From positions 337,313 to 401,312 of the forward strand of contig CAZDOJ010000001.1 in the NCBI GenBank assembly GCA_964507055.1: 64,000 bases of DNA, written 5' to 3'. The stretch is from an uncultured Gammaproteobacteria bacterium (GTDB lineage: Bacteria; Patescibacteriota; Microgenomatia; Levybacterales; UBA12049). Positions 9,394 through 50,358 of the stretch are shown one piece after another. Position 1 is the first letter of the stretch; each line of letters opens with the position of its first letter. The notes beneath the pieces are model-generated. The model had not been told where the DNA came from and made no database searches. It saw only the letters and a list, made by a program, of their open reading frames with translations. The position numbers were made by a program, and so were the translations under genes.

Positions 9394-9398
9394 ACTTT

Positions 9399-10328
9399 TT
9401 ACGTGTTATAGAAAATTTCTCCAGGAAAAGTCTCAGATTTTTTCAGCGTAAGATCTTTATATAGCATAGCATAATCAAAAGTGAAGTGTTCGGAAAGTAC
9501 TTCAGGTGAGGTGAAATATAAAGCGGTTGCCAATGCATCGGCGAGAATTGCTTTCTTTGCAATAACCCATACTGAGACAATATGTTCTGGTGATGTATTC
9601 GTTTTTGGATCGACAATATGATGATACTTATCCCATTTTCTTCGGTTACCAGCAGAACCGCAGATACTTCCATTCGTGATATTAACCAATCCGATTACTT
9701 GCTTTGGATTTGCTGGATGTTCAAGTCCAATCCGTAATGGATTTTGTTCAGCAGATTTATACAATATGTCTCCCCCAGCATCAATGCAGTAGGAAGTTAC
9801 TCCTTCCAATTCTAATAAAACTCCAACTTGATCAACAATATGTCCTTTTCCACCTGCTCCAAAATCAAGCATGGCAGGTTGTTTTAATTCTAATTTTGGA
9901 TAATGAAATTCGATAATATCTTCCCATTTTGGAGCTTGTCTTATTGTTTCTTTCGGCTTTAATGAATAAGATGCATCATATCCTAAGTCTTCCATAACAT
10001 TACCGATAAGCGGAGTGAATGCTTTGTCAGTAATTTTATAAAGTTTGTGATAGAGCTTAAATAGTTCTCTTGAGTCATTTGGTAATATATCTTGTCCACC
10101 TTTTGCGGCAAGTTTTACAAGTGTAGAGTCTGGTCTAAATCGGGAATACACTTTGTCATATACTTCTATTCGTTCATGTACTTTGTTGATAAAATCTTGC
10201 TTCGTCAAACGAGAATTGTACGCAAAAATATCAATCGTCCATGATGTCCCAATTGCTTCAAATGAGAATTGTAGTGTTTGCATAAATGAGTACTTACCTT
10301 TTATAAATGTTTTGGTAAGTAATTTCAA
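9399..10328 (-). CDS. apbE: FAD:protein FMN transferase ApbE
   Basis: FEAIGTSW, LDFGAGGKGHIVD and SAGNRRKWDKYHHIVDPKT match ApbE-family signature blocks. There is no signal peptide or lipobox. Confidence 0.8.
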   Translation of the reverse strand: MKLLTKTFIKGKYSFMQTLQFSFEAIGTSWTIDIFAYNSRLTKQDFINKVHERIEVYDKVYSRFRPDSTLVKLAAKGGQDILPNDSRELFKLYHKLYKITDKAFTPLIGNVMEDLGYDASYSLKPKETIRQAPKWEDIIEFHYPKLELKQPAMLDFGAGGKGHIVDQVGVLLELEGVTSYCIDAGGDILYKSAEQNPLRIGLEHPANPKQVIGLVNITNGSICGSAGNRRKWDKYHHIVDPKTNTSPEHIVSVWVIAKKAILADALATALYFTSPEVLSEHFTFDYAMLYKDLTLKKSETFPGEIFYNT

Positions 10329-10690
10329 TATAATTTTTTATCTTCTATATCTTCGAGCTCTTCATCAGAAAGTCCAAAATGATGCCCTAACTCATGCAGT
10401 ATCGTCTCTCGAATCATAGGTTTTATAGTATCCTCAGAATGGGATGCAGCAAGGATTGGTTCTTTGAAGAGTGATATTTTGTCTGGAAGTGCAGAATAGT
10501 TTGCTCTTTCAGTTTTAGGGATGCCATGGTACAGTCCAAGTAAATCATATGGGCTTGTAAAGTTTCCTAATTGTTCTTTGGTTGGCCAATCCTCTATTAC
10601 GATTTCTACGTTATCAATTTGTGATTGCAGTTCTTTGGGGATTTCCGCGATTGCTTCTTTAACAATCTTTTCGAATTCTGCTGTGGTCAT
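10325..10690 (-). CDS. zincin-like metallopeptidase-fold protein (DUF1025 type)
   Basis: ILHELGHHFGLSDEELEDIE is an HEXXH-containing C-terminus typical of this small cytosolic family. There is a 4-bp overlap with the apbE start. Confidence 0.6.
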   Translation of the reverse strand: MTTAEFEKIVKEAIAEIPKELQSQIDNVEIVIEDWPTKEQLGNFTSPYDLLGLYHGIPKTERANYSALPDKISLFKEPILAASHSEDTIKPMIRETILHELGHHFGLSDEELEDIEDKKLY

Positions 10691-12662: not shown

Positions 12663-13460
12663 ATGCGTTTTTTCGACAATTATATTAATGTCTTTTTCAG
12701 TACTTTTTTTGTCGGAATGGTTCTTTGGTCAGGGATCTTATTCTTTACTGGTCAAAGAAGCACTGAATGGAATTATCTTTACAATGCGGGCTATTCTCTC
12801 CTCTTTTTTTCTGTCGGAATTATATCCCTCTTTGGCGTAAAATTGCATGGACTTAGTAGTGCTGTAGGCAAAGAATTATTAAGTATCGCATTGGCTATGT
12901 TTGGATTTTCGCTTGGTTTATTTGTGTGGTGCTACTACAATGTCATAGTTAAGATAGGAACGCCGTATCCTTCAATTGCTGACTTCTTTTTTGTGCTTTA
13001 TATTCCTTTTCTTGGTTACGGCATTTTAAATTTATTGCGAGTCTTTGGTATGTTGTATTCTACGAGGATCCTTATGGAAACAATAATAATTTTTGGAGTA
13101 AGTAGTATTCTTATTTTCTTTGTCGGCAACCCTCCCGATTTGTCAAATGAATTGCCTTTGTTAGAAAAATCACTTAATATCTTTTATCTTCTCGGTGATG
13201 CCTTCTTAATATCATTAGGATACATGTTAATTCGGTTAACTCGAGGAAGGATTCATGGAAGCTTTTTCTTTTTAGTTGGAGCCTTATTTGCAATGGCTGC
13301 AGCAGATTTAACTTTTGCATATAGAACAGGAACTGAAGTCTATTGGAATGGAGATATCTCCGATCTTCTTTTCGTTCTTTCAGGGTTTTTATTTGGACTT
13401 GGAGTGACAAAGATTGTTTCAAGTCAACTTAAGATTGCTTCTACACTACCAGATAAGTAA
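12663..13460 (+). CDS. hypothetical polytopic membrane protein (about 8 TM)
   Basis: Long hydrophobic ORF. The ORF-track start at 12540 overlaps the divergent gene, so the first in-frame Met after it (12663) was chosen. Confidence 0.45.
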   Translation: MRFFDNYINVFFSTFFVGMVLWSGILFFTGQRSTEWNYLYNAGYSLLFFSVGIISLFGVKLHGLSSAVGKELLSIALAMFGFSLGLFVWCYYNVIVKIGTPYPSIADFFFVLYIPFLGYGILNLLRVFGMLYSTRILMETIIIFGVSSILIFFVGNPPDLSNELPLLEKSLNIFYLLGDAFLISLGYMLIRLTRGRIHGSFFFLVGALFAMAAADLTFAYRTGTEVYWNGDISDLLFVLSGFLFGLGVTKIVSSQLKIASTLPDK

Positions 13461-13916
13461 TTAACTTCGTTTCGCCTGTGATGCAATAATTTTTACGAGA
13501 ATTGCCTGTAGTTGTTTCTGTTCAGTTGCTGTTAACACCTTTAATAGTTCTGGTTCATATTCATTAAATGCTTTTGCAATTTCCTCACAAAGTTTCGCAC
13601 CTTTCGTTGTCAGTGTGATCATTTTCTCTCTACGGTCCTTAGGATTCTCTTCACGCTTTATATATTCATGGTGCAATAGTCTGTCTACAATACCTGTAAC
13701 ATTTGAAGCATCGCAACGTAATGTCGCCGAAAGTGAATTCATAGGAATTGAATTATCTGCGTCCAAGAGGCAGAGTGTGTACAACTGCATTACAGTTAAA
13801 CCATGCTGCTCTGCAAGATTCATCAAGTTATGTTTTGCTGCAATTGCCACTCGAAATAGTTGCCAATACAGATTTTCTTTAAAATTTGAGCTCGCCATAG
13901 TATTTATTATACGCAA
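13461..13916 (-). CDS. MarR-family transcriptional regulator
   Basis: GLTVMQLYTLCLL...LRCDASNVTGIVDRLLHHEYIKREENPKDRREK is a MarR winged HTH. The gene is divergent from an MFS gene. Confidence 0.85.
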   Translation of the reverse strand: MRIINTMASSNFKENLYWQLFRVAIAAKHNLMNLAEQHGLTVMQLYTLCLLDADNSIPMNSLSATLRCDASNVTGIVDRLLHHEYIKREENPKDRREKMITLTTKGAKLCEEIAKAFNEYEPELLKVLTATEQKQLQAILVKIIASQAKRS

Positions 13917-13937
13917 ATTCTCTTACATAATCAATAG

Positions 13938-13967
13938 TTGACAATATAAACTATCTAGTTCTATAAT
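13938..13967 (+). promoter_or_regulatory. sigma70-like promoter (TTGACA-18-TATAAT) with an embedded palindrome AACTATCTAGTT; candidate MarR operator for the MFS gene
   Basis: TTGACA at 13938..13943 and TATAAT at 13962..13967. The 5-2-5 palindrome at 13949..13960 lies in the spacer, 24 bp upstream of the MFS ATG. Confidence 0.45.
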
Positions 13968-13990
13968 AGTTGAATACTTAAAGTAATTTT

Positions 13991-15397
13991 ATGAAACAAA
14001 AATCTCCTTGGCTTATATTTTTTATAGTAGCAGTTGCCCAATTTATGGTAGTCCTTGATACTTCTATAACAAATGTCGCATTACCTGCAATTGAAAAATC
14101 ACTTGATTTTTCACCAAGCTCACTGCAATGGGTTGTTACAGCATATGCTTTAACATTTGGCGGATTCTTATTACTTGGTGGAAGAGCTGCAGATCTATTA
14201 GGCCGTCGTCGAATGCTTCTTATTGGTATGATAAGCTTCACATTTTTTTCATTACTCATTGGTATTTCTCATTCCGCAACTATGCTTATCGTACTTCGTG
14301 CTCTTCAGGGGGCTGCTGCCGCATTGATGTCTCCTTCAGCTTTATCTATTGTCCTTACTACATTTAAAGAAGGTAAAGAAAGGAATAAAGCTCTCGGACT
14401 TTGGACAACTGTCGCAACTGGTGGTGCAGCTGTAGGGCTATTGCTTGGTGGTGTATTAACAGAATATTTAGGTTGGCAATGGAACTTCTTTATTAATGTT
14501 CCTGTGGGGATTCTACTTTCAATTGCTATTCTAAAATTTGTACCAAAGCAAGAACGAAACACCACACATAGGCATATGGATTTACCGGGTGCAGCATTAG
14601 TTACAAGCGGTTTAATTCTCTTTGTTTATGCAGTGAGTGAATCACCTGCATGGGGAATTTTCAGTGCTCAAACACTTAGTGCCTTTACATTAGCGATAGG
14701 ATTACTTGCAGCATTTATTTACAATGAATCTAAAAGTAAACATCCCTTGATGCCTTTATCGATCTTCAAAATTCGAAATGTTGTAGGAGCTAATTTAATG
14801 ATGGCACCCGTTGCTGCAAGTTTGTTTGGTATGTTTTATATGACATCTCTCTATGCACAAAGTATTCTGCATTACTCTTCCTTGACTGCTGGATTAAGTT
14901 TTTTGCCATTCCCTCTTATTCTTGGATTTATGTCGACACGCGTTCCAGGATTGGTTTCCAAATATGGATATAAAAGATTTCTTGTGATTGGTCCAATTAT
15001 TATTGCGATAAGTTTGGCATGGTTGAGTAGACTTCCTGTGGGTGGGACTTATGTTATTGATATTCTCCCTACCATTCTTTTGATGCCAGTTGGTGTTGGA
15101 ATGACCTTTATGCCGTTATTTGCTGCTGCCACATCAGGAGTTTCACCAGATAAATCAGGTTTGGCATCGGGACTTATTACTACATCTCAACAGATGGGTG
15201 GAGCTTTAGGCTTAGCAATTCTTTCGGGTGTTGCAGCAGCGGCTACTGGAGCTTCTACATCTCATGGACAGCTTGTGCTTGGTTATGATAGAGCATTCTT
15301 TGTTGCCATATTCTTTGTATTAGCTGCGTCATTTGTAGGATTTACTGTCGTCAAACAAACACAAAAACCTGTATCTCCAGTTGTTGTTACTGAATAA
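13991..15397 (+). CDS. MFS transporter, DHA2 family
   Basis: LDTSITNVALPAI...LQWVVTAYALTFGG...GRAADLLGRRR...ALQGAAAAL, with 14 TM helices. Confidence 0.85.
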   Translation: MKQKSPWLIFFIVAVAQFMVVLDTSITNVALPAIEKSLDFSPSSLQWVVTAYALTFGGFLLLGGRAADLLGRRRMLLIGMISFTFFSLLIGISHSATMLIVLRALQGAAAALMSPSALSIVLTTFKEGKERNKALGLWTTVATGGAAVGLLLGGVLTEYLGWQWNFFINVPVGILLSIAILKFVPKQERNTTHRHMDLPGAALVTSGLILFVYAVSESPAWGIFSAQTLSAFTLAIGLLAAFIYNESKSKHPLMPLSIFKIRNVVGANLMMAPVAASLFGMFYMTSLYAQSILHYSSLTAGLSFLPFPLILGFMSTRVPGLVSKYGYKRFLVIGPIIIAISLAWLSRLPVGGTYVIDILPTILLMPVGVGMTFMPLFAAATSGVSPDKSGLASGLITTSQQMGGALGLAILSGVAAAATGASTSHGQLVLGYDRAFFVAIFFVLAASFVGFTVVKQTQKPVSPVVVTE

Positions 15398-16465: not shown

Positions 16466-17008
16466 ATGAAGTATGTAGCACTCCTTCGTGGGATAAATGT
16501 TGGCGGTAATAATGCAGTGAAGATGTCTGAATTAAAAATAGCTTTCGAGCAACTCGGCCATACAAATGTGCTTACGTATATTAATAGTGGTAATGTCATT
16601 TTTGAATCAGATGAATCTGATAGTAAAAAACTTACACAGGAGTTAGAAAAAGTTTTGACGAAGACGTTCAACTTTAGTGCCCGTCTGCTGGTACTATCGC
16701 ATTCTCAAATGAAGCGAATTCTCTCAGAAGTCCCTATTGAATGGAATACGGATAAAGACATTCGATGTTACGTCACTTTTGTAATGGCAGATCTTACGAC
16801 CACCAAAGCTGCTCAAGAAGTTGAAGTCCGTGAGGGAATCGATATGCTCAAAGTAGGAACACATGTACTTTATATGACGACAAAGATGAGTGGTTTGACG
16901 AAGAGTAAGTTTACCAAAATTATCGGTAAGAAGATTTTTCAAGATATGACTATGAGAAATTATAATACTACGCAAAAGCTATTTGCTCTTATGGAAAAGG
17001 ATCAGTAA
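16466..17008 (+). CDS. DUF1697 domain protein
   Basis: The N-terminus MKYVALLRGINVGGNN is a DUF1697 hallmark. Confidence 0.75.
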   Translation: MKYVALLRGINVGGNNAVKMSELKIAFEQLGHTNVLTYINSGNVIFESDESDSKKLTQELEKVLTKTFNFSARLLVLSHSQMKRILSEVPIEWNTDKDIRCYVTFVMADLTTTKAAQEVEVREGIDMLKVGTHVLYMTTKMSGLTKSKFTKIIGKKIFQDMTMRNYNTTQKLFALMEKDQ

Positions 17009-17013
17009 TTGAA

Positions 17014-17301
17014 TTATTTCTTTTTCGCTGAAGATCCGTCAAGAATGAGTGTATCGGAGGGGTCGCTATGTACTCCCGTTGAACCAACGTGTTTTTCACT
17101 TATTTTTGCTCCACTTTTAATAACATGAACCAGTGCCATGGCATGTCCATGTCCCAATCCAAAATCCTCTTTTAGCCATGCTACAATTTCTCCCGATTTA
17201 GTTGCTTCGCCAAATCCTTTTTCTTTTGCCAATGCGATAAAATCGTTTGGTGTCTTACCTGTTTTTAATTGTATATTATCTAAATAAGCTTGAAATGACA
17301 T
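17014..17301 (-). CDS. DUF4287 domain protein
   Basis: The MSFQAYLDNIQLKTGKTPNDF N-terminus is characteristic of DUF4287. Confidence 0.7.
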   Translation of the reverse strand: MSFQAYLDNIQLKTGKTPNDFIALAKEKGFGEATKSGEIVAWLKEDFGLGHGHAMALVHVIKSGAKISEKHVGSTGVHSDPSDTLILDGSSAKKK

Positions 17302-30976: not shown

Positions 30977-31378
30977 CTATTGATTATCAACGCTTTGAGA
31001 AACTTCTACTTTATCAGTAGGTTTACCAATAAGTAATAATTTTACGATCCCATAAGCAACAATCGCATACACAGCCATTGCTACAAAAGTTGACCATTCG
31101 ATCACACTGCCTTGTGTAGCTGTAATGCCAAAAATTCCTGCAAATGGTTGTGCAAATGGTTCGCTTAAACCGTAAACAAAACTCACAAAGTCACTTGATG
31201 GATTTGCTCCGAGTAACTTAAATACGATCCTGAAGGCTAAAAGCACTTCAATCACACCAAGGATATACCAAACTACTTGATGAACACGAAAAATTGCTTT
31301 TTTCTGTTGGTATGCTTTTTGTGATGGGTCTGTACTGCCTGTTTGCACTATTTTTTCTCTTACTTCAACTTGCTCCAT
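30977..31378 (-). CDS. YggT-like small integral membrane protein (paralog of 12082..12540)
   Basis: LLGANPSSDFVSFVYGLSEPFAQPF is paralogous to the 12082 product. The start at 31378 is preceded by a strong SD (GGGAGGTGA), which is rare in this window. Confidence 0.5.
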   Translation of the reverse strand: MEQVEVREKIVQTGSTDPSQKAYQQKKAIFRVHQVVWYILGVIEVLLAFRIVFKLLGANPSSDFVSFVYGLSEPFAQPFAGIFGITATQGSVIEWSTFVAMAVYAIVAYGIVKLLLIGKPTDKVEVSQSVDNQ

Positions 31379-31527
31379 ATAATCACCTCCCTTCTCTATG
31401 GTTGAGTATAGTCGTTGATAATAATAACTTAGTAATAAATATGGTATTAAGCAGATCAATTATTTTATTAACTAGACGAAGATCATTCATTTTTTGTATA
31501 CTAATTATATGTGCTAAGCACGCTACT

Positions 31528-34083
31528 ATGAAATCTGTCCAACTTTCTCTCCTCTTTAAAAGTATTGTTTTTACGCTCATTGCATTAGTATGGTTAACAC
31601 AAATGAATCCTGTCTACGCGGCCGATCCTGAGCTTGTGGGTGGAAGTTCTGTAAGTGGCTCAAGCGGGGTTGCGACACCTATAACCGACCTTCAAGTGTC
31701 AGGAACTGGAAATCCTACTGTTCCAGTGAAGCTTCGAGTGAGCAGCGGAACTCTTTCTATGTCGATAACAACAGGTTTGACATTTACAGGTGGATCTACG
31801 GGTTCAACATTACAATTTAGCGGTTCCAAAGATAACGTAAATGCTGCTCTGGCGACATTAACCTACACACGATCTGGTGCTGGGAGTGATACATTGGAAG
31901 CATCATTGGTGAATGCGGGAGAAGTATTTTTCTCAGACAATGGACATCTTTATGAATATGTTTCTTTTACTGCGACTTGGACCAATGCTAATACCAACGC
32001 ACAGGGCAGAACAAAATATGGAGCAACTGGGTATTTAACGACAATTACTTCACAAGCTGAGAATGATTTCGTCGCAGCCCGTCTTTTGAATGCAGGTTGG
32101 ATGGGAGCAAGTGATTCATCTCTCGAGGGTGATTGGAAATGGGTAACCGGCCCTGAATCTGGAATATCGTTCTGGTCAGGATTATCGGGTGGATCTGCAG
32201 TTTCTGGTAGATACGCAAATTGGGGCACGGGTGAACCAAATAATGCGGGTGATGAAGATTGTGCCCAATTTCTTACCGGTGGTACTGGAAAATGGAATGA
32301 TCTTCCATGTAGCACAACAACTTTGCCAGGATATGTCGTCGAATATGGTAGTAGTACGCCATTGGATGTCTCCTCGAAAAATGTTTCCATCACAACTGTC
32401 GTTAATCCAACAGCAAGTAGTTTTACTCCAGCTGATAATGCAACCAATGTCACAGCAAATGCAAATTTAGTAATTGTCTTTAGTACATCCATCACAAAAG
32501 GTACTGGAAGTATACTTTTGAAAAAAACATCAGATGATTCGACTGTTGAAACGATTGATGTCACAAGTAGTCAAGTTACTGGTGGAGGAACTGCGACAAT
32601 AACAATTAATCCCAATATGACATTTGATGAAAACACTGGATATTACGTCACAATTCCTGGCACAACTTTTCGAGATGGTTCAAGTAATTACTATGCTGGA
32701 ATTTCCACCAAAACGACGTGGAATTTTACAACCGGTGATTTCACATCTCCATCATTAAGTTCTGTCACAGCATCTTCAATTGGTGATACAACAACAACTA
32801 TTACCTGGACTACCAATGAGAATGCTTCGACAAGAATTTCCTATGGTTTGACTGACGCATATGGTACGACTACATCCGAGACTGATACATCACCTCGTGT
32901 AACCGCACATACAGTTGTACGAACTGGCTTACTTGCTTGTACAACCTATCATTACTCTGTCTATTCACGCGACGCCTCTTCAAATACCTCGACCTCAGAA
33001 GACAAAACATTTACAACAACTGGTTGCCAATCCAATACTCCTCCTGTGAATGCAACTTCAAGTGCTGTTACTGTAAGCTCTGGAGGGACGACTACTTTGA
33101 CTGAAGGCACAAATCAAATCAGTGTTGAAACTCCAAGTAACTTTACTAATACAGCATCAACAGTTGTCATTCAGGTAAAGGCTTTAGAAGATACGCCAAT
33201 ACTAAATACACTTGGTCGACCAGCAGATGTGCCAAATGAAGTGGGCAATATTGTCTTTGATGTCAAAGCAATTATTAATGGGACAACAGTTCTAGATAAT
33301 TTTAATGCCCCTGTCACAATTACCTACCAATATACTGACGCAGATGTTGCGGGACTCGATGAATCTACTTTTTGGCTTTATCACTATCACAATGGTGCTT
33401 GGACACCGCTTAACTCATGCAACATAACCACAGCCACTAATACGATTTCGTGTACAACGCAAAGCTTCTCTATTTTCGGATTGTTTGGAAGGCAAAAAGC
33501 ATATGCCTCAGAAGTAAAAAATCCATCATGCACTATTACCAAACCCGATCATGCACCTGATCTTTTCCAAATTGATACTTCAAAGAATAAAGCGACATTG
33601 CACTTTACACCACTGATGGATAATGTTACCAATTATTTTGTGGCGTATGGATATTCTGCTGGAGACGAACGATTTGGAGTTCTTACCCAACAAGGACCTT
33701 CGACAGGTGTACTGTCATATACAATTAATGATCTCTCTCCCAATACGACATACTATTTCAAAGTGCGAGCACAAAACGATTGCATGCCAGGAGATTGGGG
33801 AAATACGATGTCTGTCAAAACGACCAATGGATCAACAGTTAAAAATTATAAAAATTTCGTGGCTCGTGTAATGAGTTATACACCACGACAAACAACAACA
33901 GTTACCAATGCTAAAACAACTTCAAATAAAACGTGTGAATATACAGTGAAGAGTGGTGATTCTCTTTGGAATATTTCACAATCCAAATTAGGATCTGGTG
34001 CAAAATATACAGAAATTATGAAATCAAATAACCTTTCTTCTCCATCACTCAATGTTGGACAAAAATTAAAAGTCGGTTGCTAA
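31528..34083 (+). CDS. secreted multidomain surface protein: signal peptide, C-type lectin-like domain, Ig-like (Big_5/SbsA-type) domain, two FN3-like domains, C-terminal LysM
   Basis: Signal peptide MKSVQLSLLFKSIVFTLIALVWLTQMNPVYA. The CTLD at about 31942..32346 has WMGASD...GDWKWVTG...YANWGTGEPNN...EDCAQ...KWNDLPC...GYVVEY. The LysM at about 33940..34077 (YTVKSGDSLWNISQ...GQKLKV) is flanked by Cys residues. Confidence 0.7.
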   Translation: MKSVQLSLLFKSIVFTLIALVWLTQMNPVYAADPELVGGSSVSGSSGVATPITDLQVSGTGNPTVPVKLRVSSGTLSMSITTGLTFTGGSTGSTLQFSGSKDNVNAALATLTYTRSGAGSDTLEASLVNAGEVFFSDNGHLYEYVSFTATWTNANTNAQGRTKYGATGYLTTITSQAENDFVAARLLNAGWMGASDSSLEGDWKWVTGPESGISFWSGLSGGSAVSGRYANWGTGEPNNAGDEDCAQFLTGGTGKWNDLPCSTTTLPGYVVEYGSSTPLDVSSKNVSITTVVNPTASSFTPADNATNVTANANLVIVFSTSITKGTGSILLKKTSDDSTVETIDVTSSQVTGGGTATITINPNMTFDENTGYYVTIPGTTFRDGSSNYYAGISTKTTWNFTTGDFTSPSLSSVTASSIGDTTTTITWTTNENASTRISYGLTDAYGTTTSETDTSPRVTAHTVVRTGLLACTTYHYSVYSRDASSNTSTSEDKTFTTTGCQSNTPPVNATSSAVTVSSGGTTTLTEGTNQISVETPSNFTNTASTVVIQVKALEDTPILNTLGRPADVPNEVGNIVFDVKAIINGTTVLDNFNAPVTITYQYTDADVAGLDESTFWLYHYHNGAWTPLNSCNITTATNTISCTTQSFSIFGLFGRQKAYASEVKNPSCTITKPDHAPDLFQIDTSKNKATLHFTPLMDNVTNYFVAYGYSAGDERFGVLTQQGPSTGVLSYTINDLSPNTTYYFKVRAQNDCMPGDWGNTMSVKTTNGSTVKNYKNFVARVMSYTPRQTTTVTNAKTTSNKTCEYTVKSGDSLWNISQSKLGSGAKYTEIMKSNNLSSPSLNVGQKLKVGC

Positions 34084-34116: not shown

Positions 34117-34845
34117 ATGGAAGATCATACAATTCGACTCAATAAATATCTTGCCAATCTCGGTATCTGTGCAAGACGTGAAGTCAAACAACTGCTTAAA
34201 GAAAAAATAATTACCGTTAATGATGAGCGAGCTAAAGAACCAGGTATTCGCATTGATCCGCAGAAAGATGCTATACGAATTGATGGTAATAAAGTTAAAT
34301 CTCCTACATTAGTCTATTATGTACTTAACAAGCCAAAAGGAATTGTTTCGACAACAGCTGATGAATTTGGACGCAAAAATGTAACGACATTGGTTCCGAA
34401 AGATCAACGCGTCTATCCCGTAGGACGATTAGATAAAGACACCACAGGATTAATTATCCTTACCAATGATGGTGAATTAACTAATCTGCTTACCCATCCT
34501 CGGTATCATGTCGATAAAGTGTATAGGTTGGATATCGCAGGGCGATTGGATAAATTCCAACTCAAGGCATTGCGAGATGGAGTCCTTCTTGACGATGGTA
34601 TCACCTATCCAGCAGAGGTTAAAATAATAAGTGAATCAAATGGAAAATCGATTGTAGAAATGAAGATTCATGAAGGACGAAATCGGCAAATTAGAAGAAT
34701 GTGTGAGACTGTCGGAGCGACTTTAACTGCATTGCAGCGAGTTCGGTTTGGGCCAATTGCCTTGAGTGGACTCAAAGAAGGTACCTATCGAGATCTTACC
34801 AAAAAGGAAATTGATTCACTTAAAAGTGTTGCACAAAAGGTATAA
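34117..34845 (+). CDS. rRNA pseudouridine synthase (RsuA/RluB/RluF family)
   Basis: The N-terminal S4 domain (RLNKYLANLGICARREVKQLLKE) and the catalytic VGRLDKDTTGLIILTNDGE block. Confidence 0.85.
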   Translation: MEDHTIRLNKYLANLGICARREVKQLLKEKIITVNDERAKEPGIRIDPQKDAIRIDGNKVKSPTLVYYVLNKPKGIVSTTADEFGRKNVTTLVPKDQRVYPVGRLDKDTTGLIILTNDGELTNLLTHPRYHVDKVYRLDIAGRLDKFQLKALRDGVLLDDGITYPAEVKIISESNGKSIVEMKIHEGRNRQIRRMCETVGATLTALQRVRFGPIALSGLKEGTYRDLTKKEIDSLKSVAQKV

Positions 34846-34894
34846 ATTACCGCTTGCACCAATATTTCCTATAGGCTATAATTTATTTATTCCT

Positions 34895-37237
34895 ATGCAA
34901 ATATTTAAGAAACTATTTTTACTATTCATTTTTTCATTTTTGCTTATCGCACAAACAAATGTCGCTCAGGCACAAGTCGCTTCAACACGCCTTGGGGGCA
35001 TGAATCTCGAAGGATATTGCCGCAGTCTGAATCAAGGTGGATCAACTTTAAACGGTAATACATGGCAATGTGAATCAGGTTCAACAATTAATTTGGATGC
35101 TGCATGTCGATGGCAATATAATAACGCTACATCAGTTGCACGACAAGAAGTTACAAATAATCCGTATACGTGGGCATGTTATACAGCAGGATCGACACCA
35201 ACTCCTACAATTTCTCCAACTCAAGCACCTACGCCAACACAAATTGTCTCGACACCAACTCGAGCAGCAAGTCCTACTCCGACGAGAATGGTTACTCCGA
35301 CTCCGTTGCCCACAACGGGAACACTTGTTATCTTTGATGATGCTCTGGCATCAGGATGGACAGATGCTTCTTATCGAGCAACTAATACTATCGTGACAAC
35401 TCCAGTTGGCAATGGCACTCGATCTATTTCATCTGTATTGCAATCCGATGGCGGATTTAATCTGCAATCAATCAGTGGCATCCAAACAACAAATAATACG
35501 GTTTTACATTTTATGCTTCGAGCATCTGCAGCAAATCAGCGTTATGAAGTCTATGTAGATACTGTATATGGACAACCTTTGCGTGCACCAGTTTCTCTCG
35601 CAAATTATGGGGGCCAACCAACAACAACAGCATGGCGAACCTATGATATCCCTTTAAGTGATTTAGGCGGTGGAAATGTTTCGCTGCGTGACATCGCAAT
35701 CCATGATGAATCAGGTACTAACCAGCAGGCAGTTTTTATCGACCAAGTAGAACTTCGATTGATTAATGTTTCCGTCACTCCGACGTTATCACCAACTGTA
35801 ATTCCAACTATCTCAGTTACCCCGACTCCAACAAGAACAATTACGCCTACACCCACTGCGACTCCAGCTGCAGGAGCAACTGTAACAGTATTTGCAGATG
35901 CACTCGCAAATGGATGGACAGATGCGTCATATGCAACAACAAATACAATTGTTACAAATCCAGTTGGAAGCGGAACAAATGCTATTGCTTCAACAATTAA
36001 TCGAGATGGTGGCTTTGATCTGCAATCTGTGAATGGTGTACTAACTTCGAGTAATACAGTGTTGCACTTTATGCTCCGTGCATCAACAGCAAATCAACAA
36101 TATGAAGTGTATGCTGATACACAATACGGTCAGCCACTTCGTGCACCAGTTTCTCTCGCAAATTACGGTGGTCAACCTATAACAACTGCATGGCGAACCT
36201 ATGATATTCCATTGAGTGATTTAGGTGCGACCAATGTCTCTCTTCGTGACATCGTTATTCACGATGCTGTTGGTGCAAATCAAGGAGTCGTTTATATTGA
36301 TCAAATTGAGTTACGCTCAGTCAGTGGATCTGTAACACCAACCGCTATGCCAACAGTTGCAATAACCTCGACCCCATCTCCAACGCCGATTGCTAATACA
36401 GGAGTGAGAAAAAGTATTTATGCAATGACTCCGCAAGAAGTTACGCGACTAACAAATGCATTCAATACTATTCGTGCAAATGGTGTCTATCAGGATTTTA
36501 TGAATCGTCATATGCAATCGATGATGACATTGACCCAACCTAACGATCCTACGACACTTAGAAATGTTGCACATCGTGGACCATCATTCTTACCTTGGCA
36601 CCGTTCAATTACAAGAGAGTTTGAATTAGCTTTACAATCTGCAGATCCTTCGGTGACATTACCATATTGGCCATTTGAACAGGAGACTCCTGGGCAATTA
36701 CCACGGGTTTTCTCCGCAGCCTATTTTGGTGGTGATGGAAATCCTTCATTTGGAAATAGAGTTATCGATGGACCATTTGCGTCTTGGCAAATTACTCGTA
36801 TGGTTGGACGCGATCCCGAAGGGCAACCAACCGCTCCAACGCAAGCTAATGTAAATGCTCTGATGCAATATACAAACTACGATTCTGCTCCATATAATGA
36901 AACTTCAAGTGGTTTTAGAAATGGTATTGAAGGATGGATTGGAGCAAATGGACAGTGGAGTATGCATAATCGTATCCATGCATATGTCGGCGGGGATATG
37001 CTTCCTCGAGATGATATGAGTACTAATGTCGTTAATGATCCAATCTTTTGGCTCGTTCATGCAAATATTGATCGCATCTGGTGGCAATGGCAACAAACTC
37101 GTGGCATCAATAATTATCAACCAGTCAGTGGTGGGCCGACTGGACATAATTTAAATGATCGAATGCAGTTCCTCAATAGCAATACAACTCCTGCAAGTAA
37201 TTTGGATATCCGAACGATGGGATATTCCTATCAGTAA
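34895..37237 (+). CDS. secreted tyrosinase (type-3 copper polyphenol oxidase) with an N-terminal Cys-rich module, PT-rich linkers and two tandem copies of an unassigned ~148-aa domain
   Basis: Signal peptide MQIFKKLFLLFIFSFLLIAQTNVAQA. The CuA site HRGPSFLPWHRSITREFE fits the tyrosinase CuA pattern H-x4-F-L-x-W-H-R-x2-T-x3-E. The CuB site DPIFWLVHANID fits D-P-x-F-[W]-x2-H-x3-D, together with HNRIHAYVGG. Confidence 0.85.
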   Translation: MQIFKKLFLLFIFSFLLIAQTNVAQAQVASTRLGGMNLEGYCRSLNQGGSTLNGNTWQCESGSTINLDAACRWQYNNATSVARQEVTNNPYTWACYTAGSTPTPTISPTQAPTPTQIVSTPTRAASPTPTRMVTPTPLPTTGTLVIFDDALASGWTDASYRATNTIVTTPVGNGTRSISSVLQSDGGFNLQSISGIQTTNNTVLHFMLRASAANQRYEVYVDTVYGQPLRAPVSLANYGGQPTTTAWRTYDIPLSDLGGGNVSLRDIAIHDESGTNQQAVFIDQVELRLINVSVTPTLSPTVIPTISVTPTPTRTITPTPTATPAAGATVTVFADALANGWTDASYATTNTIVTNPVGSGTNAIASTINRDGGFDLQSVNGVLTSSNTVLHFMLRASTANQQYEVYADTQYGQPLRAPVSLANYGGQPITTAWRTYDIPLSDLGATNVSLRDIVIHDAVGANQGVVYIDQIELRSVSGSVTPTAMPTVAITSTPSPTPIANTGVRKSIYAMTPQEVTRLTNAFNTIRANGVYQDFMNRHMQSMMTLTQPNDPTTLRNVAHRGPSFLPWHRSITREFELALQSADPSVTLPYWPFEQETPGQLPRVFSAAYFGGDGNPSFGNRVIDGPFASWQITRMVGRDPEGQPTAPTQANVNALMQYTNYDSAPYNETSSGFRNGIEGWIGANGQWSMHNRIHAYVGGDMLPRDDMSTNVVNDPIFWLVHANIDRIWWQWQQTRGINNYQPVSGGPTGHNLNDRMQFLNSNTTPASNLDIRTMGYSYQ
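35324..36320 (+). repeat. intragenic tandem duplication (two ~440-bp units separated by a PT linker) inside the tyrosinase gene
   Basis: Unit 1 (35324..35765) and unit 2 (35878..36320) are about 80% identical at the DNA level. They share identical stretches such as cgtgcaccagtttctctcgcaaatta and gcatggcgaacctatgatat. Confidence 0.8.
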
Positions 37238-37257: not shown

Positions 37258-37821
37258 ATGAATCGATATATTTTATTCGCCGTTGCTCTCATTGGATTAC
37301 TTATTCTTTCTCCACAACAAAGCTTTGCGGCATATTCTGCGTCAGATGGTGAGGTCAAGGGAACACTTGAAATTACACCAAAAGACCCACCGTATGCCGG
37401 GTTACCACTCAATTTAAAATTTCAATTTTCTGATACACCTCAAGGGTTTACGTTGCGAAATTGTAATTGCCAATTAAGCGTTGAAGAGCCAGGGCGACTT
37501 CCTTCAAATATCCCCTTAACATTGCAAAACGAATCAGGCCCTGATGTAAACTTTGTTTCTGTACCCTACCTTTTTCCAAGTAATGCCAACTATAAACTCG
37601 TCATGAATGCACAACCAAAGGAAACAAATGCATTCGTTCCATTTACTCTTTCTTGGGATGTCACAGTACAAGAGAATAAACATCTTGTTCCCTATACAAG
37701 TCATGAAGACAAGAATGATTTTCGTTATCTCGGTATAGCAATTCCAGTTGGTATCGCAGTACTTTTTATCCTTTTCTTAGCCTTCAGATACTTCAGAAAG
37801 CATCGGATTAAAAATAAATAA
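37258..37821 (+). CDS. secreted, C-terminally membrane-anchored protein of unknown function, cotranscribed downstream of the tyrosinase
   Basis: Signal peptide (MNRYILFAVALIGLLILSPQQSFA) and a C-terminal TM with a basic tail (RYFRKHRIKNK). The start is 20 bp after the tyrosinase stop. Confidence 0.45.
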   Translation: MNRYILFAVALIGLLILSPQQSFAAYSASDGEVKGTLEITPKDPPYAGLPLNLKFQFSDTPQGFTLRNCNCQLSVEEPGRLPSNIPLTLQNESGPDVNFVSVPYLFPSNANYKLVMNAQPKETNAFVPFTLSWDVTVQENKHLVPYTSHEDKNDFRYLGIAIPVGIAVLFILFLAFRYFRKHRIKNK

Positions 37822-46531: not shown

Positions 46532-47476
46532 ATGGATCCAACAATCCCACCACAGAATCAACAACCATCATCACAAATTCCTCAGGAACCAAAACCTGAT
46601 GGGCCACATGAACCAGAAGAACAACACACTGAACATCCGCACCATGTTTCTAATAAGCCAATTGTCGTTGCTTTACTTTTGCTTGCAGTCGTTTTCCTTG
46701 CTGGAATTTATTATTTTACAGTTCATCCGAGACCACCTGTTAAAGATACAATTCAGGATCAAGCTATGTTATCTGTTGCTCCAACAAAGCCAATTGAAGT
46801 TGACTGGGAGTTTGATGGTGAACAATGGAAATCATCTTCTACGCCACCAGCTTGTCAGGATCCAATTGTATTTGATCCTTTAGTCGATTTGAGTCTTGTC
46901 TCTGCTGTCTTGTATCCAGGTCAAGTTCGAGGTGAAGATTATAAACCACATGGTGGATTTATTTTCGGTGGACGATCCAATGAAGAAATTCTTGTTCGAG
47001 CACCAATGGATGCACGTCTCATTGCCGGAAGTCGATATGTGGAACAAGGCGAAGTACAATATCTCTTATCATTTGTAAACTCTTGTGGCATTGCATACCG
47101 ATTTGATCATCTTTTGACACTCGCACCAGAAATCCAAAAGATTGCAGATACTCTGCCTCAACCAGTTGAGAACGATTCTCGATTAACCAAATTTGCATCT
47201 GCATCAGCGGTCAAAAAAGGTGATCCTATTGCAACATCAGTAGGATTTAAAAATACACGTAATGTCACTGTAGACTTCGGTGTCTATGATTTACGCAAAC
47301 AAAACCCTTCAGCGTCAGATGCTGCATTTGCTCAATTCCATGCAGATGAAAAAGATCAAGCTTATTATGCTCTTTGCTGGCTTGAGCTTTTCCCAGCGGA
47401 TCAAGTTGCTACTATTAAAGCATTTCCTGGTGGTGACCCTATCGTTGGTAAAGCAAGTGACTTCTGTAAACAATAA
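46532..47476 (+). CDS. type-II membrane-anchored protein with a His/Pro/Glu-rich cytoplasmic N-terminus and a ~250-aa extracytoplasmic domain of unknown function
   Basis: The N-terminus PHEPEEQHTEHPHHVSNKP is followed by a single TM helix (IVVALLLLAVVFLAGIYYF). The gene lies immediately upstream of the galactose-oxidase-like gene. Confidence 0.45.
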   Translation: MDPTIPPQNQQPSSQIPQEPKPDGPHEPEEQHTEHPHHVSNKPIVVALLLLAVVFLAGIYYFTVHPRPPVKDTIQDQAMLSVAPTKPIEVDWEFDGEQWKSSSTPPACQDPIVFDPLVDLSLVSAVLYPGQVRGEDYKPHGGFIFGGRSNEEILVRAPMDARLIAGSRYVEQGEVQYLLSFVNSCGIAYRFDHLLTLAPEIQKIADTLPQPVENDSRLTKFASASAVKKGDPIATSVGFKNTRNVTVDFGVYDLRKQNPSASDAAFAQFHADEKDQAYYALCWLELFPADQVATIKAFPGGDPIVGKASDFCKQ

Positions 47477-47517: not shown

Positions 47518-50358
47518 ATGCACCTAAATCATTTGTCTCAATCTCAAAAAAAGATGATTTCCTATGGTGTTCTTCTCCTCTTTTTATTTATAATCCCTCT
47601 CAATATTATGTTGCTCGATCAGCAGAATGATGTCCGAAGCCGTGCGTCACAAGATCAATCCTTTGCAATTACTGCTCCAGCAGAAAATGGTACCGTGAAA
47701 TCAACAGTGACAATTTCTGCAAATGTTTCAATCCCGATTGGACATCATGGTGTGAAGTTCTTAGTTGATGGTGTTTCTGTCGGATCTGATGACACAGCTC
47801 CATATTTTGTGCAATGGGATTCAACAACTGCACCTGATGGAGAACATACAATTGTTGTAAAAGAAATTAATGAAGAAAAGCCTGATTCCGAACGATCATC
47901 CTCACCAATTAAAGTAAAAGTCATAAATGATCCCAATGATAGGACTGCGGCAGCAGTGAGTGCGATTCAAGAGGATGTCGTTCAGGACAACTTTGCCACA
48001 ATTGCATGGGATACTAACGATAAAGCTTCTTCACAGGTTATTTACAAAAAAGCTGGTGGAACTGATAAATATACTTCGGTAAACACAGTTTTGACTGATG
48101 ATCATTCAGTAGCACTCTCAAATTTGGAACCAAGTACAGAATATGTGTATCAGGTAAAAAGCACTGATGCTGCGGGAAATACGACGTTATCTGATGAGCA
48201 ATCATTTGTGACAGCAGCTGAATCAAACGAAACAATTGGCCAATGGCAAAAAGTAAGTGGATGGAACTTCCCTACTGTTCATGCGTCATTACTTTACACT
48301 GGTGAACTGATGCTCTGGAGCTGGAATCCATCCAATGCTGTGGACGGTACGCAACTATGGAACTACACAAATAACCAATTTACCAAAGTAGGAATTTCAA
48401 ATAACATCTTTTGTGCTGGACAAGCTATGCTTCCAGACGGACGACTTGTTGTTGCTGGTGGTCATATAAATAATAATGTTGGTACAAAAAATATCAATAT
48501 TTATGATCCTGGGACAAAGAAGTGGTCTGCTGGACCCATGATGAAAGATGGTCGTTGGTATCCGACTGTAAATGTCCTTGCAGATGGAAGAACCGTTATC
48601 CTAACTGGTGACATTAATACAAGTACACTTGCAGTTAATCCTGAAATTTACGATGAGAAAACAAATACTGTAACATCAATCCCAAACATCCAAACAAATA
48701 CACTCGCTGCTTATTCTGCAACATTTCCATTTGGTATGAATAAGCTATTTACTATCTCATATGGTAATGCGGATATGTATGTCTTGGACGCTGATGCAAA
48801 GACATGGACATATAAAGGAAAAGCACTCAATACAGGAGGAGCAACTGCACAATACAGACCAGGAAAAATTCTTATGTCAGGTGGACGAGCAGGTAGTGGT
48901 GCTGATAAAAAAGCTGCGATTATAGATATTACTGGAGGGAACTTTACATGGAAATCAGTGGCACCGATGCAATATGGACGATATTTCCACAATCTTGTAA
49001 ATCTTCCTGATGGAAAAGTACTGGCTGTCGGAGGAGGTTCCCCTGATACAAGTGGTACTACTGGACCTTTAGCAAATGAAATTTGGGATCCCGCTACAGA
49101 ACAATGGACAACAGTTGCTCCATTGAGTGTGAAGAGAATGTATCATTCAACTGCGATTCTTCTTCCTGATGGACGTGTCGTAGCATCTGGTGGAAGAAAT
49201 GGTAATGGAGAGAATTATGATGCAGAGATTTATTCTCCTCCATATCTTTTTAAAGGAAATAGACCAACAGTCTCTCAAGCACCGTCATCAATCAATAGAG
49301 GTTCTACAATAACGATAACCACATCAAATGCTTCAACGATCTCACAAGTTAATATGCTTTCTCTCGCTGCACAAACCCATACACACGATATGAGTCAGAG
49401 ATTTGTTCCGCTGCAATTTACGAAAATTGCAAATGGATTACAGGCACAAATCCCAAATGACGAAGCAGTTCTACCTGATGGATATTTTATGTTATTTATT
49501 GTAAATAGTGATGGTGTCCCTTCTGTTGCAAAAATGGTAAAGGTTACAGATCAAGTTGTACCGACCGCTACTCCAACTGTCGTACAACCAACTGCTACCA
49601 AAATACCAACCCCTACTCCTACAAAAACAGCCACGCCAACACCTACAAAGAAAGTAACTCCTACCCCAACACGTTCTGCATATCCGACATTTACTCCTAC
49701 ACCAGTGCCAACAAAGAAACCAACAGCAACAATTGTTCCTACATACACTCCTGCACCAACTCCTACACGAGTTCCTATTGTACGCCCAACTTTGCAGCCA
49801 ACGCCGACGATAAATCCTTCTACAACCAATTTGGCACTTTCTGTTGGATTGCATGGAATTGGTAAAGGTGGAGATAAAATTAGTAAAACATCCATTGGAA
49901 ATATGGATCCATTCCGCAAACAGCGTGTCTTTGAAGTGACTGTAAAGAATTTAGATAATGAGCGAGTGGCATCTGTTTCAGCGTTACTTACCTACAATGA
50001 TCAATTGGGAGTATATCTTGGCTATGCATCTGTTCCATCGCTTACTTCAGGGCAATACCAATTTGTTATCCGTACAGCAAATTATCTAGGACAATCTATT
50101 CCTGCTATACAAAACATTACACAGCAACAATCGAATACCCTTCCTGCGTTGTCACTCGTTGGCGGTGATACCAATAATGATAATAAAGTGAGTGTCTTAG
50201 ACTACAATCTAATTTTTGATTGCTTCAGTGACCTTACAGCCCCAAAGAACTGTACATTGGAGAAGCGTAATGCAACTGATTTGAACGATGATGGATATGT
50301 AAATCAGATTGATTACAATTTCTTCCTGCGAGAACTCTCAGTATTTGAAGGTAATTAA
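47518..50358 (+). CDS. secreted galactose-oxidase/glyoxal-oxidase-like copper-radical oxidase (kelch beta-propeller + DUF1929) with N-terminal Ig/FN3-like domains, a PT-rich linker and a C-terminal dockerin-like module
   Basis: NIFCAGQAMLPDGRLVVAGG corresponds to the galactose-oxidase Cys228 region (SMFCPG...IVVTGG). YHSTAILLPDGRVVASGG matches the Tyr495-His496 region. LPDGYFMLFIVNSDGVPSVAKMVKV matches the galactose-oxidase C-terminal domain. The dockerin-like repeats are GDTNNDNKVSVLDYNLI and DLNDDGYVNQIDYNFFL. Confidence 0.8.
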   Translation: MHLNHLSQSQKKMISYGVLLLFLFIIPLNIMLLDQQNDVRSRASQDQSFAITAPAENGTVKSTVTISANVSIPIGHHGVKFLVDGVSVGSDDTAPYFVQWDSTTAPDGEHTIVVKEINEEKPDSERSSSPIKVKVINDPNDRTAAAVSAIQEDVVQDNFATIAWDTNDKASSQVIYKKAGGTDKYTSVNTVLTDDHSVALSNLEPSTEYVYQVKSTDAAGNTTLSDEQSFVTAAESNETIGQWQKVSGWNFPTVHASLLYTGELMLWSWNPSNAVDGTQLWNYTNNQFTKVGISNNIFCAGQAMLPDGRLVVAGGHINNNVGTKNINIYDPGTKKWSAGPMMKDGRWYPTVNVLADGRTVILTGDINTSTLAVNPEIYDEKTNTVTSIPNIQTNTLAAYSATFPFGMNKLFTISYGNADMYVLDADAKTWTYKGKALNTGGATAQYRPGKILMSGGRAGSGADKKAAIIDITGGNFTWKSVAPMQYGRYFHNLVNLPDGKVLAVGGGSPDTSGTTGPLANEIWDPATEQWTTVAPLSVKRMYHSTAILLPDGRVVASGGRNGNGENYDAEIYSPPYLFKGNRPTVSQAPSSINRGSTITITTSNASTISQVNMLSLAAQTHTHDMSQRFVPLQFTKIANGLQAQIPNDEAVLPDGYFMLFIVNSDGVPSVAKMVKVTDQVVPTATPTVVQPTATKIPTPTPTKTATPTPTKKVTPTPTRSAYPTFTPTPVPTKKPTATIVPTYTPAPTPTRVPIVRPTLQPTPTINPSTTNLALSVGLHGIGKGGDKISKTSIGNMDPFRKQRVFEVTVKNLDNERVASVSALLTYNDQLGVYLGYASVPSLTSGQYQFVIRTANYLGQSIPAIQNITQQQSNTLPALSLVGGDTNNDNKVSVLDYNLIFDCFSDLTAPKNCTLEKRNATDLNDDGYVNQIDYNFFLRELSVFEGN
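49560..49800 (+). repeat. low-complexity Pro/Thr-rich linker-coding repeat inside the oxidase gene
   Basis: It encodes PTATPTVVQPTATKIPTPTPTKTATPTPTKKVTPTPT... This region is the source of the spurious Cys/Arg-rich and Gly/Val-rich antisense ORFs. Confidence 0.8.

Follow-up and report, generated by a model that had tools for sequence, protein, structure and literature searches.

Does the dockerin-like tail of a bacterial copper radical oxidase (CRO) plug the enzyme into a cohesin, or is it a free-standing calcium-binding module? The question arises from a complete gene at 47518..50358 (+; ATG start, stop codon counted in) in a 64,000-nucleotide stretch of contig CAZDOJ010000001.1 (assembly GCA_964507055.1), which we refer to as the window. 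The gene encodes a 946-amino-acid protein, predicted to be secreted, in which a copper radical oxidase is joined to an X-module and dockerin at the C terminus; CRO is used below for the whole protein. We lean, with moderate confidence, toward CRO being docked cargo of a lineage-specific cohesin-dockerin surface system in Levybacteria-like bacteria of the candidate phyla radiation (CPR). The Levyibacteriota are part of the Microgenomates group within the Patescibacteria/CPR.

The body of CRO is predicted to be a copper radical oxidase of the galactose oxidase/glyoxal oxidase/GlxA superfamily, with an intact active site and a GlxA-like second shell. The closest solved structures in the PDB are those of galactose oxidase (9g8h, E = 8.8e-48; 1gof, 1.1e-38) and GlxA (4unm, 7e-44), with scores far beyond chance. 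The Kelch beta-propeller catalytic domain (residues ~240 to 581; 48235..49260, +) is recognized by Pfam Glyoxal_oxid_N (PF07250; 56.1 bits versus a cutoff of 37.5) as well as by several Kelch families across residues ~280 to 580 (Kelch_6 at 66.7 bits). Behind it lies a GO-like E-set domain (DUF1929; residues 582 to 676; 49261..49545, +) that scores 79.5 bits with PF09118 (E = 2.4e-22; gathering cutoff, 25). A sequence-only reading of the window had assigned the protein to this type from a set of quoted blocks, and the assignment holds. Every motif is found (among them FCAG at residues 298 to 301, GRLVVAGG at 308 to 315, YHSTAILLPDGRVVASGG at 542 to 559, and LPDGYFMLFIVNSDGVPSV at 652 to 670), the Cys/Tyr/Tyr/His/His set is complete in the alignment with 1GOF, and the profiles that it had named (Glyoxal_oxid_N, DUF1929, and Dockerin_1) all score above their cutoffs.

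In that alignment, the catalytic regions of CRO and nine orthologues were compared with mature Fusarium galactose oxidase (GAO), whose reference sequence was checked to be identical to residues 1 to 639 of PDB 1GOF. GAO Cys228, Tyr272, Tyr495, His496, and His581 correspond to CRO C299 (48412-48414), Y348 (within W347-Y348, 48556-48561), Y542 and H543 (49141-49146), and H621, the fourth copper ligand (49378-49380, inside the E-set domain). All five residues are invariant in the 10 aligned sequences, which are 54 to 84% identical elsewhere. By analogy with the family, a mononuclear copper would be held by Y348, Y542, H543, and H621, with Y348 thioether-linked to C299 and stacked by the adjacent W347 as in GlxA, and the enzyme would use O2 to oxidize primary alcohol or aldehyde groups, with H2O2 as a product. 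The second shell departs from that of the fungal enzyme. The stacking Trp290 of GAO is replaced by I366 (I/A/V/T across the orthologues), and the galactose pocket residues F194, R330, Q406, and F464 correspond to V275, F405, A458, and S512, positions that vary among the orthologues; the combination of Trp290 and pocket residues used to recognize galactose 6-oxidases (AA5_2) is thus absent from CRO in the alignment with 1GOF. Since the fungal pocket is not conserved, free galactose is probably not the substrate. W347, directly preceding the cross-link tyrosine, is itself invariant among the orthologues; in GlxA, Trp288 stacks on Tyr289 (PMC11611005).

This likeness to GlxA has its limits. The GlxA equivalog model NF052501 is the top NCBIfam match of CRO, at 220.7 bits against a cutoff of 800 and over model positions 263 to 645 only, and neither the window nor any of five orthologous loci has a gene for a cslA-type glycan synthase next to CRO. 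With its score below the equivalog cutoff and no cslA-type neighbor, CRO is not a GlxA orthologue. Conceivably, it could still function as one, acting with a CslA-type synthase in making or modifying a surface glucan, with the dockerin being incidental. The place of 4unm among the best solved relatives, the rank of the GlxA model, and the Trp-Tyr pair would all fit such a role. The partial, low-scoring model match and the missing cslA-like glycosyltransferase argue against it, as do three parts of CRO that GlxA does not have: a Big_7 bacterial Ig-like domain (residues 50 to 114; 47665..47859, +; PF17957, 54.3 bits, E = 2.2e-14), an FN3-like domain (residues 155 to 232; 47980..48213, +; Pur_ac_phosph_N at 32.3 bits for a cutoff of 30, with the fn3 profile at 21.5 bits and under its own Pfam cutoff), and the C-terminal tail. 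We regard this role as highly improbable.

We also give very little credence to the idea that the Kelch/E-set body is a noncatalytic binding domain, a pseudo-enzyme that is maybe like some GalOx-like modules of anaerobic cellulosomes. Such a loss of function would suit an organism whose group is usually regarded as anaerobic, and clostridial scaffoldins do carry GalOx-like modules of unexplained function (PMC6780208). Against this stands the invariance of the five copper-site residues and the stacking Trp in orthologues that are only 54 to 62% identical overall; an invariant copper site in otherwise divergent orthologues argues for selection on the active site.

The tail of CRO begins with a flexible Pro/Thr-rich linker (residues 677 to 771; 49546..49830, +; 24 Pro and 31 Thr in 95 residues, 58%), the length of which differs from orthologue to orthologue. 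Two antisense open reading frames (ORFs) of 120 to 122 amino acids, 49492-49854 (-) and 49551-49919 (-), lie wholly within the region coding for this linker and are most likely artifacts of its repetitive codons rather than genes. The linker is followed by a beta-sandwich domain (residues 772 to 882; 49831..50163, +) and a dockerin (residues 883 to 946; 50164..50355, +), and the full architecture including this tail is kept in 10 full-length orthologues (54 to 84% identity). Dockerin_1 (PF00404) matches residues 883 to 936 at 26.6 bits, above its gathering cutoff of 22.9, and the C-terminal 179 amino acids alone at 29.6 bits (E = 7.9e-7). The two EF-hand-like segments that the sequence-only reading had seen behind the Pro/Thr linker, GDTNNDNKVSVLDYNLI (residues 883 to 899) and DLNDDGYVNQIDYNFFL (residues 921 to 937), are indeed canonical Ca-loop repeats: both loops, DTNNDNKVSVLD and DLNDDGYVNQID (loop 1, D884 to D895; loop 2, D921 to D932), have D/N at positions 1, 3, 5, and 12, which suggests that the dockerin binds Ca2+. 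Between the repeats lies a Cys pair, C902/C912, that is invariant in the orthologues, is conserved at a level of at least 90% in the wider family described below, and may form a disulfide.

That reading had called the module a type I dockerin. The dockerin is genuine; the "type I" label does not stand, as the dockerin is always fused to the sandwich and the pair models as a dyad of X-module and dockerin (XDoc). In the orthologue alignment, the ~110 residues between linker and dockerin equal the dockerin in their degree of conservation, with an LHGIGKGGD loop as a conserved feature. No Pfam family scores above its own cutoff on this domain, and a sandwich precedes the dockerin throughout the family (1291 representatives). 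An AlphaFold2 model of the 179-residue tail, built from a 71-sequence alignment, has a mean predicted local distance difference test (pLDDT) score of 94.3 and a predicted template modeling score of 0.88, and shows the sandwich (pLDDT 90 to 98) followed by three helices with the dockerin fold (91 to 96; final 9 residues, 74). It replaced an earlier model from 10 orthologues, in which the sandwich was good and the dockerin had a pLDDT of 38 to 56. When the dyad model was compared with the PDB by Foldseek, the nine best matches were all chains of X-module plus type II dockerin (4wi0_B, 5g5d_B, 4fl4_C/L/I, 4u3s_B, 2b59_B, 5m0y_B, and 5k39_B), with E values of 1.2e-6 to 2.4e-5, template modeling scores of 0.51 to 0.60, and 174 to 181 aligned columns, i.e., the whole dyad; the tenth was an unrelated sandwich (E = 2.7e-4). 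The model superposes as one unit on the XDoc of CipA and ScaA. Hence, at the level of the predicted structure, the tail of CRO is an XDoc-like dyad, with the X-module packed on the dockerin at the C terminus.

The dyad is by no means confined to CRO. With E cutoffs of 1e-3 and 1e-30, an exhaustive search of 1.84 billion representative proteins with a sandwich-plus-dockerin profile returned 5250 and 1291 proteins, respectively. Among the best 150 matches, which range from 226 to 1457 amino acids, the alignment reaches the last residue in almost all. The N-terminal cargo domains of 85 dyad proteins include CBM_4_9 (11 cases), ricin-type lectins (RicinB), F5/8 type C, and VWA, and further GH5, GH99, polysaccharide lyase/pectate-lyase folds, esterases, a phosphoesterase, and a peptidoglycan-binding domain; small proteins consisting of just a leader and the dyad also occur in the family. 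Among the 122 closest homologues of CRO, the dyad is present on 11 distinct proteins, all of them Levybacteria-like orthologues; the remainder, which come from groups such as Acidobacteria, Chloroflexota, Actinobacteria, and Planctomycetes, have LamG, Big, or FN3 modules. As only the Levybacteria-like members among these homologues have it, the fusion of CRO to the dyad is lineage specific.

Are there cohesins for these dyads to bind? Pfam Cohesin matches 3 of the 85 dyad-bearing cargo proteins, and an iterative search brought out a ~150-residue cohesin-like domain directly after the leader in 17 to 19 of the 141 best dyad representatives. Taken one by one, 9 of 17 such N-terminal domains are recognized by Pfam Cohesin (best E, 1.4e-8). 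When their profile was compared with the PDB, 8 of the 10 matches, including the top six, were cohesins (best match, 6kgc; E = 0.0047), and a word-index search for homologues of the cohesin profile gave two proteins, both positive for Pfam Cohesin. A scan of GTDB species genomes for the dyad pattern yielded 75 loci with 143 dyad ORFs, of which 62 also encode an N-terminal cohesin, often in tandem gene arrays. The same loci contain 25 small ORFs of ~200 to 225 amino acids that combine an N-terminal hydrophobic anchor ("MSKT...") with a single, more canonical cohesin; in 19 of these 25 cases the ORF lies no more than ~110 nucleotides downstream of a cohesin-plus-dyad gene. This anchored protein is likely the cell-surface base of the system, to judge from its sequence and position. 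Cohesins and dyads were found together in every well-sampled genome except CAWBPM01, for which the reading was limited to the flanks of four loci. Every cohesin protein seen has a single cohesin on its N-terminal side, and none has the tandem cohesins of a scaffoldin.

The informative labels of the 75 loci point mostly to metagenome-assembled genomes of Levybacteria/Levyibacteriota, and a CRO orthologue of 59% identity, MBA3724340.1, is annotated as Candidatus Levybacteria. L019, L042 (OZ246394.1), and about 30 other loci bear titles such as "uncultured Gammaproteobacteria," "Lysobacterales," "Saccharimonadales," "Acidiferrales," and the like; these are probably default or misbinned labels, and taxon counts made from record titles would mislead.

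The clearest view of a cohesin cluster comes from the sister genome OZ246394.1, a chromosome of 1,610,123 bp whose CRO orthologue is 84% identical and which has seven dyad genes, three of them with cohesins, plus one anchored cohesin. Its cluster L042 starts with a cohesin-plus-dyad gene (402 amino acids) and continues with a VWA-SdrD_B-dyad gene (739 amino acids; 8330-10549), two SdrD_B-like ORFs, a cohesin-VWA-SdrD_B-CARDB-dyad gene (888 amino acids; 12696-15362), a second cohesin-plus-dyad gene (408 amino acids), and, finally, the anchored cohesin (203 amino acids; 16626-17237), which scores 27.6 bits with Pfam Cohesin for a cutoff of 24.1. The VWA, SdrD_B, and CARDB proteins with dyads in this cluster resemble components of Gram-positive pili and adhesins. 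By this analogy, they suggest a noncovalent chain assembly through cohesin-dockerin contacts.

For the organism of the window itself, the evidence has to be sought elsewhere in the genome. The sequence-only reading saw no cohesin or scaffoldin gene in the window, and for cohesins our searches concur: six-frame hidden Markov model (HMM) searches of all 64 kb with the N-terminal-cohesin and anchored-cohesin profiles detected none, a six-frame search with the dyad profile gave nothing beyond the dyad of CRO, and Pfam found neither cohesin nor dockerin on the 10 largest neighboring ORFs. A CRO of 100% identity is also present on a contig of 1,318,932 bp. A contig of this same size carries P0351, P0356, and P0360, cluster mates that are 92 to 95% identical to proteins of OZ246394.1; P0356 and P0360 are of the VWA, SdrD_B, and CARDB kind with a dyad. 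Logan contigs from the runs SRR14271336 and SRR14271332, which hold the CRO contigs of the window, carry P0360 as well. Logan contig L086 repeats the end of the cluster: an 888-residue cohesin-to-dyad protein, a 408-residue cohesin-plus-dyad protein, and a 204-residue PF00963 cohesin (3980-4594), the last with a precomputed PF00963 match and an E value of 1.8e-64 for the anchored-cohesin HMM. On this evidence, the organism of the window has cohesin genes outside the window. Because of these genes, docking to a cohesin seems likelier than a free-standing Ca-binding module, the alternative that the sequence-only reading had kept in play.

That alternative deserves to be put in its strongest form. 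The dyad might dock no cohesin at all and instead be a Ca2+-stabilized module that binds a cell-wall or S-layer polymer or a host glycan, or that stabilizes exported proteins; the cohesin genes would then serve the cohesin-plus-dyad proteins only. Noncellulosomal cohesin and dockerin modules are reportedly widespread, and Peer and colleagues are said to have described, in 2009, dockerin-like ones without identified cohesin partners. The sandwich weakly matches FlgD_ig in 12 of 71 members, Por_Secre_tail in 5 of 71, and CBM20/CBM41 folds (Foldseek E, ~1e-3), and many leader-plus-dyad proteins have no cohesin nearby; for stand-alone dyad proteins, no cohesin was found in the two neighborhoods examined. 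Three observations tell against it. The two domains pack like cohesin-binding XDoc dyads, a far better match than any to other sandwiches; 62 of the 143 dyad ORFs carry a cohesin of their own, with a dedicated anchored cohesin directly downstream; and cohesins co-occur with dyads throughout the well-sampled genomes, with the exception named above. On balance, we consider the lack of docking rather unlikely.

Several results nevertheless weigh against CRO as docked cargo. The X-module is just 16 to 18% identical to clostridial X-modules in structural alignments, a resemblance at the level of fold only. Only about half of the divergent N-terminal cohesin-like domains reach significance with Pfam, and sequence E values against cohesins in the PDB are weak (0.005 to 0.4). 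The 64-kb window contains no cohesin, and the cohesin cluster is linked to the genome of the window indirectly, through a contig of equal size and shared sequencing runs. The genes next to CRO, in the window as in the orthologous loci, include no conserved neighbor that would point to its partner or substrate. Finally, the usual picture of CPR bacteria is one of anaerobes living by fermentation, whereas an enzyme of this type needs O2. Another O2-dependent copper enzyme, a tyrosinase, is encoded 10 kb upstream of CRO; it suggests exposure to O2 without proving it.

The N terminus bears on the direction in which CRO would be held. Its leader (residues 1 to 45; 47518..47652, +; hydrophobicity 2.86 over 15 residues) has a basic N terminus (KK), a hydrophobic helix at residues ~13 to 33, and the sequence QQNDVRSRA, and is predicted to be a signal peptide or signal anchor. 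The layout basic-hydrophobic-QQxQ(D/E)xRS(R/K)A recurs on cohesin-plus-dyad proteins and much of the cargo as well as on CRO (82 of 134 with a loosely defined motif, 49 with a strict one; P0207-P0347 included), and it may mark a lineage-specific signal peptide or processing site. Were the N-terminal helix to stay uncleaved in the membrane, CRO would be the base rather than the cargo, with its XDoc recruiting cohesin-bearing adhesin-like proteins of the VWA/SdrD_B kind. GlxA is membrane associated (PMC11611005), the hydrophobic helix in the leader is long, the 95-residue Pro/Thr tether places the dyad far from the catalytic body, and the cohesin-plus-dyad proteins could bind CRO. This inverted arrangement seems distinctly unlikely to us, since the leader ends in a small-residue motif (RSRA/RSKA) that is typical of a signal peptidase site and is also present on clearly cargo-like proteins, and since a separate, dedicated anchored cohesin exists.

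With CRO as docked cargo, the following picture can be drawn. The protein would be exported through the basic-hydrophobic-QQxQ(D/E)xRS(R/K)A leader, which would be cleaved, and would then fold, take up copper, and form the Tyr-Cys cofactor. The XDoc dyad on its ~95-residue Pro/Thr tether would plug into a cohesin of the system in a Ca2+-dependent manner; both the partner and the Ca2+ dependence are postulated here, and the surface localization of CRO is deduced from fold and genomic co-occurrence. Three components would make up the system: proteins that have a cohesin at the N terminus and a dyad at the C terminus, some with VWA/SdrD_B adhesin domains, as adaptors or chain-forming subunits; the ~200-residue single-cohesin protein with its N-terminal membrane anchor, encoded directly downstream, as the likely surface base; and hundreds of dyad-tagged cargo proteins, mostly predicted to bind or cleave glycans. 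Because each cohesin protein has one cohesin and its own dyad, assembly would be chain-like or one-to-one on the anchored cohesin, not on a multisocket scaffoldin. To judge from its cargo, the system would bind and process glycans, while its VWA/SdrD_B components indicate adhesion, and CRO might contribute an oxidative auxiliary activity at the cell surface or at the interface of the cell with a substrate or host. A more ambitious version, in which the three-part cohesin-XDoc system forms head-to-tail "dockerin pilus" chains with more than 1000 cargo clusters and CRO is docked at the attachment interface of an ultrasmall episymbiont, acting on substrate or host glycans, is offered tentatively and falls short of being probable.

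The dyads may have two docking specificities, as judged from two classes of extreme C termini. The tail "ELTN.GGQ" is nearly confined to cargo (25 cases versus 1 on cohesin-bearing proteins among the C termini of L008-L082), and "ELSVQ.G[DE]" is shared by cohesin-bearing proteins and part of the cargo, CRO among them. As the class of CRO is thus present on both kinds of protein, the tail gave no firm assignment of its docking specificity.

The region around CRO is syntenic among relatives, with genes for YkuD, C39 peptidase, TruB, HAD, and histidine kinases, and the genes directly flanking CRO vary between orthologues. A 314-amino-acid ORF (46532-47476, +) ends 41 nucleotides upstream of CRO; its product has a His/Pro-rich N terminus (HEPEEQHTEHPHH), one transmembrane helix, and an outer domain of ~240 residues without a Pfam match, and any role in metal handling would be pure speculation. 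This ORF and the downstream gene for a glyoxalase-fold protein were considered as functional partners of CRO and rejected, being common only to the closest relatives. The tyrosinase gene (34766-37237, +) encodes an exported protein of 823 amino acids with PF00264 at residues 574 to 777 after ~570 residues without a Pfam match, and is followed by a gene for a 187-residue signal peptide protein, also without a Pfam match (37258-37821, +), which is possibly a caddie protein or copper chaperone; the same gene pair lies upstream of CRO in OZ246394.1. A 929-residue protein (31294-34083, +) with C-type lectin, Big_5, FN3, and C-terminal LysM domains appears to be a surface protein that is anchored to peptidoglycan instead of being borne by a dyad. 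In two orthologous loci (L005:6061-7888 and L006:5473-7851), divergent MauE-like and pyridine-nucleotide disulfide oxidoreductase genes precede CRO, in one of them together with an MsrB/SelR gene, a set of MauE-like and oxidoreductase genes that is not in the window; these may serve to repair oxidative damage beside an H2O2-producing enzyme. The G+C content of the window is 34 to 40%, and it contains no rRNA gene; its source is most likely a Levybacteria-like CPR bacterium whose genome measures ~1.3 Mb.

On its own, CRO would add one uncharacterized bacterial protein to a family in which few bacterial substrates are known, and an oxidase with a dockerin is only moderately surprising. The main interest lies in the context, a large secretome of CPR bacteria that is tagged with dyads and has single-cohesin proteins to match. 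If the docking is real, tiny-genome CPR/Patescibacteria, whose attachment to hosts or substrates is otherwise largely unknown, decorate their surface by a modular plug-and-socket principle, and the cargo list can be read from genomes by means of the dyad. It would also place a natural O2-dependent AA5-like oxidase in a cohesin-dockerin complex, for which we found natural precedents only in the GalOx-like modules, themselves unexplained, of anaerobic scaffoldins, and the dyads and their cohesins would give protein-assembly engineering a new, orthogonal pair of cohesin and dockerin. In the literature that we searched, which did not cover all journals, we found neither a link of cohesins or dockerins with Levybacteria or Microgenomates nor a combination of a dockerin with a copper radical oxidase treated as such. 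We view CRO as a new member of a known enzyme family and its delivery system as a previously unreported arrangement of known modules.

How, then, does this protein compare with known systems? Like GlxA of Streptomyces lividans (4UNM), CRO is a bacterial copper radical oxidase with an export leader, a Kelch propeller, and a DUF1929/E-set domain, and the two share identical first-shell ligands and the Trp-Tyr pair (W347-Y348 in CRO, Trp288-Tyr289 in GlxA). It differs in its additional Big_7 and FN3 domains at the N terminus and its Pro/Thr tether and XDoc dyad at the C terminus, and in lacking a cslA-type neighbor. The galactose 6-oxidase of Fusarium graminearum (1GOF, AA5_2) is 31% identical over 439 aligned residues, belongs to the same propeller-plus-E-set fold family, and has all of its copper-site equivalents kept in CRO; in contrast, its N-terminal F5/8-type CBM32 domain is absent from CRO, and W290 and the pocket residues are replaced.

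The nearest structural relatives of the tail are the XDoc dyads of CipA of Clostridium thermocellum and ScaA of Acetivibrio cellulolyticus (2B59, 3KCP, 5G5D, and 4WI0), which likewise consist of an Ig-like sandwich and a three-helix dockerin with two Ca loops at the extreme C terminus. In the clostridial systems, however, the XDoc is found on scaffoldins and the enzymes carry plain type I dockerins, whereas the dyad described here is found on enzymes, lectins, and adhesins; the Levybacteria-type dyad is further distinguished by its LHGIGxxGD loop and its inter-repeat Cys pair.

The sequence-only reading had suggested that CRO would be a new kind of cargo. In this it went too far, as GalOx-like modules have already been reported on the dockerin- or XDoc-bearing scaffoldins ScaO/ScaP of A. 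cellulolyticus, C. alkalicellulosi, and A. mesophilus, where their presence in strict anaerobes is a paradox (PMC6780208, PMC11557425). A. cellulolyticus ScaO, C. alkalicellulosi ScaP2, and A. mesophilus WP_128706311.1 thus have a GalOx-like module and a dockerin or XDoc on one polypeptide, as CRO does. These are multimodular proteins with peptidases and cohesins, whereas CRO would be a single-enzyme candidate cargo in a CPR bacterium. Dockerin enzymes and cohesin proteins also occur together in another uncultivated phylum: Candidatus Stygibacter (Cloacimonadota) encodes signal peptide-bearing enzymes with C-terminal dockerins along with cohesin proteins, from which an extracellular complex was inferred (PMC8542988). 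There, a single giant scaffoldin, which bears CBMs as well as tandem cohesins, is anchored by a C-terminal domain of the type IX secretion system. The Levybacteria-like system, in contrast, would be built from single-cohesin proteins that have an XDoc of their own and from a small cohesin anchored at its N terminus.

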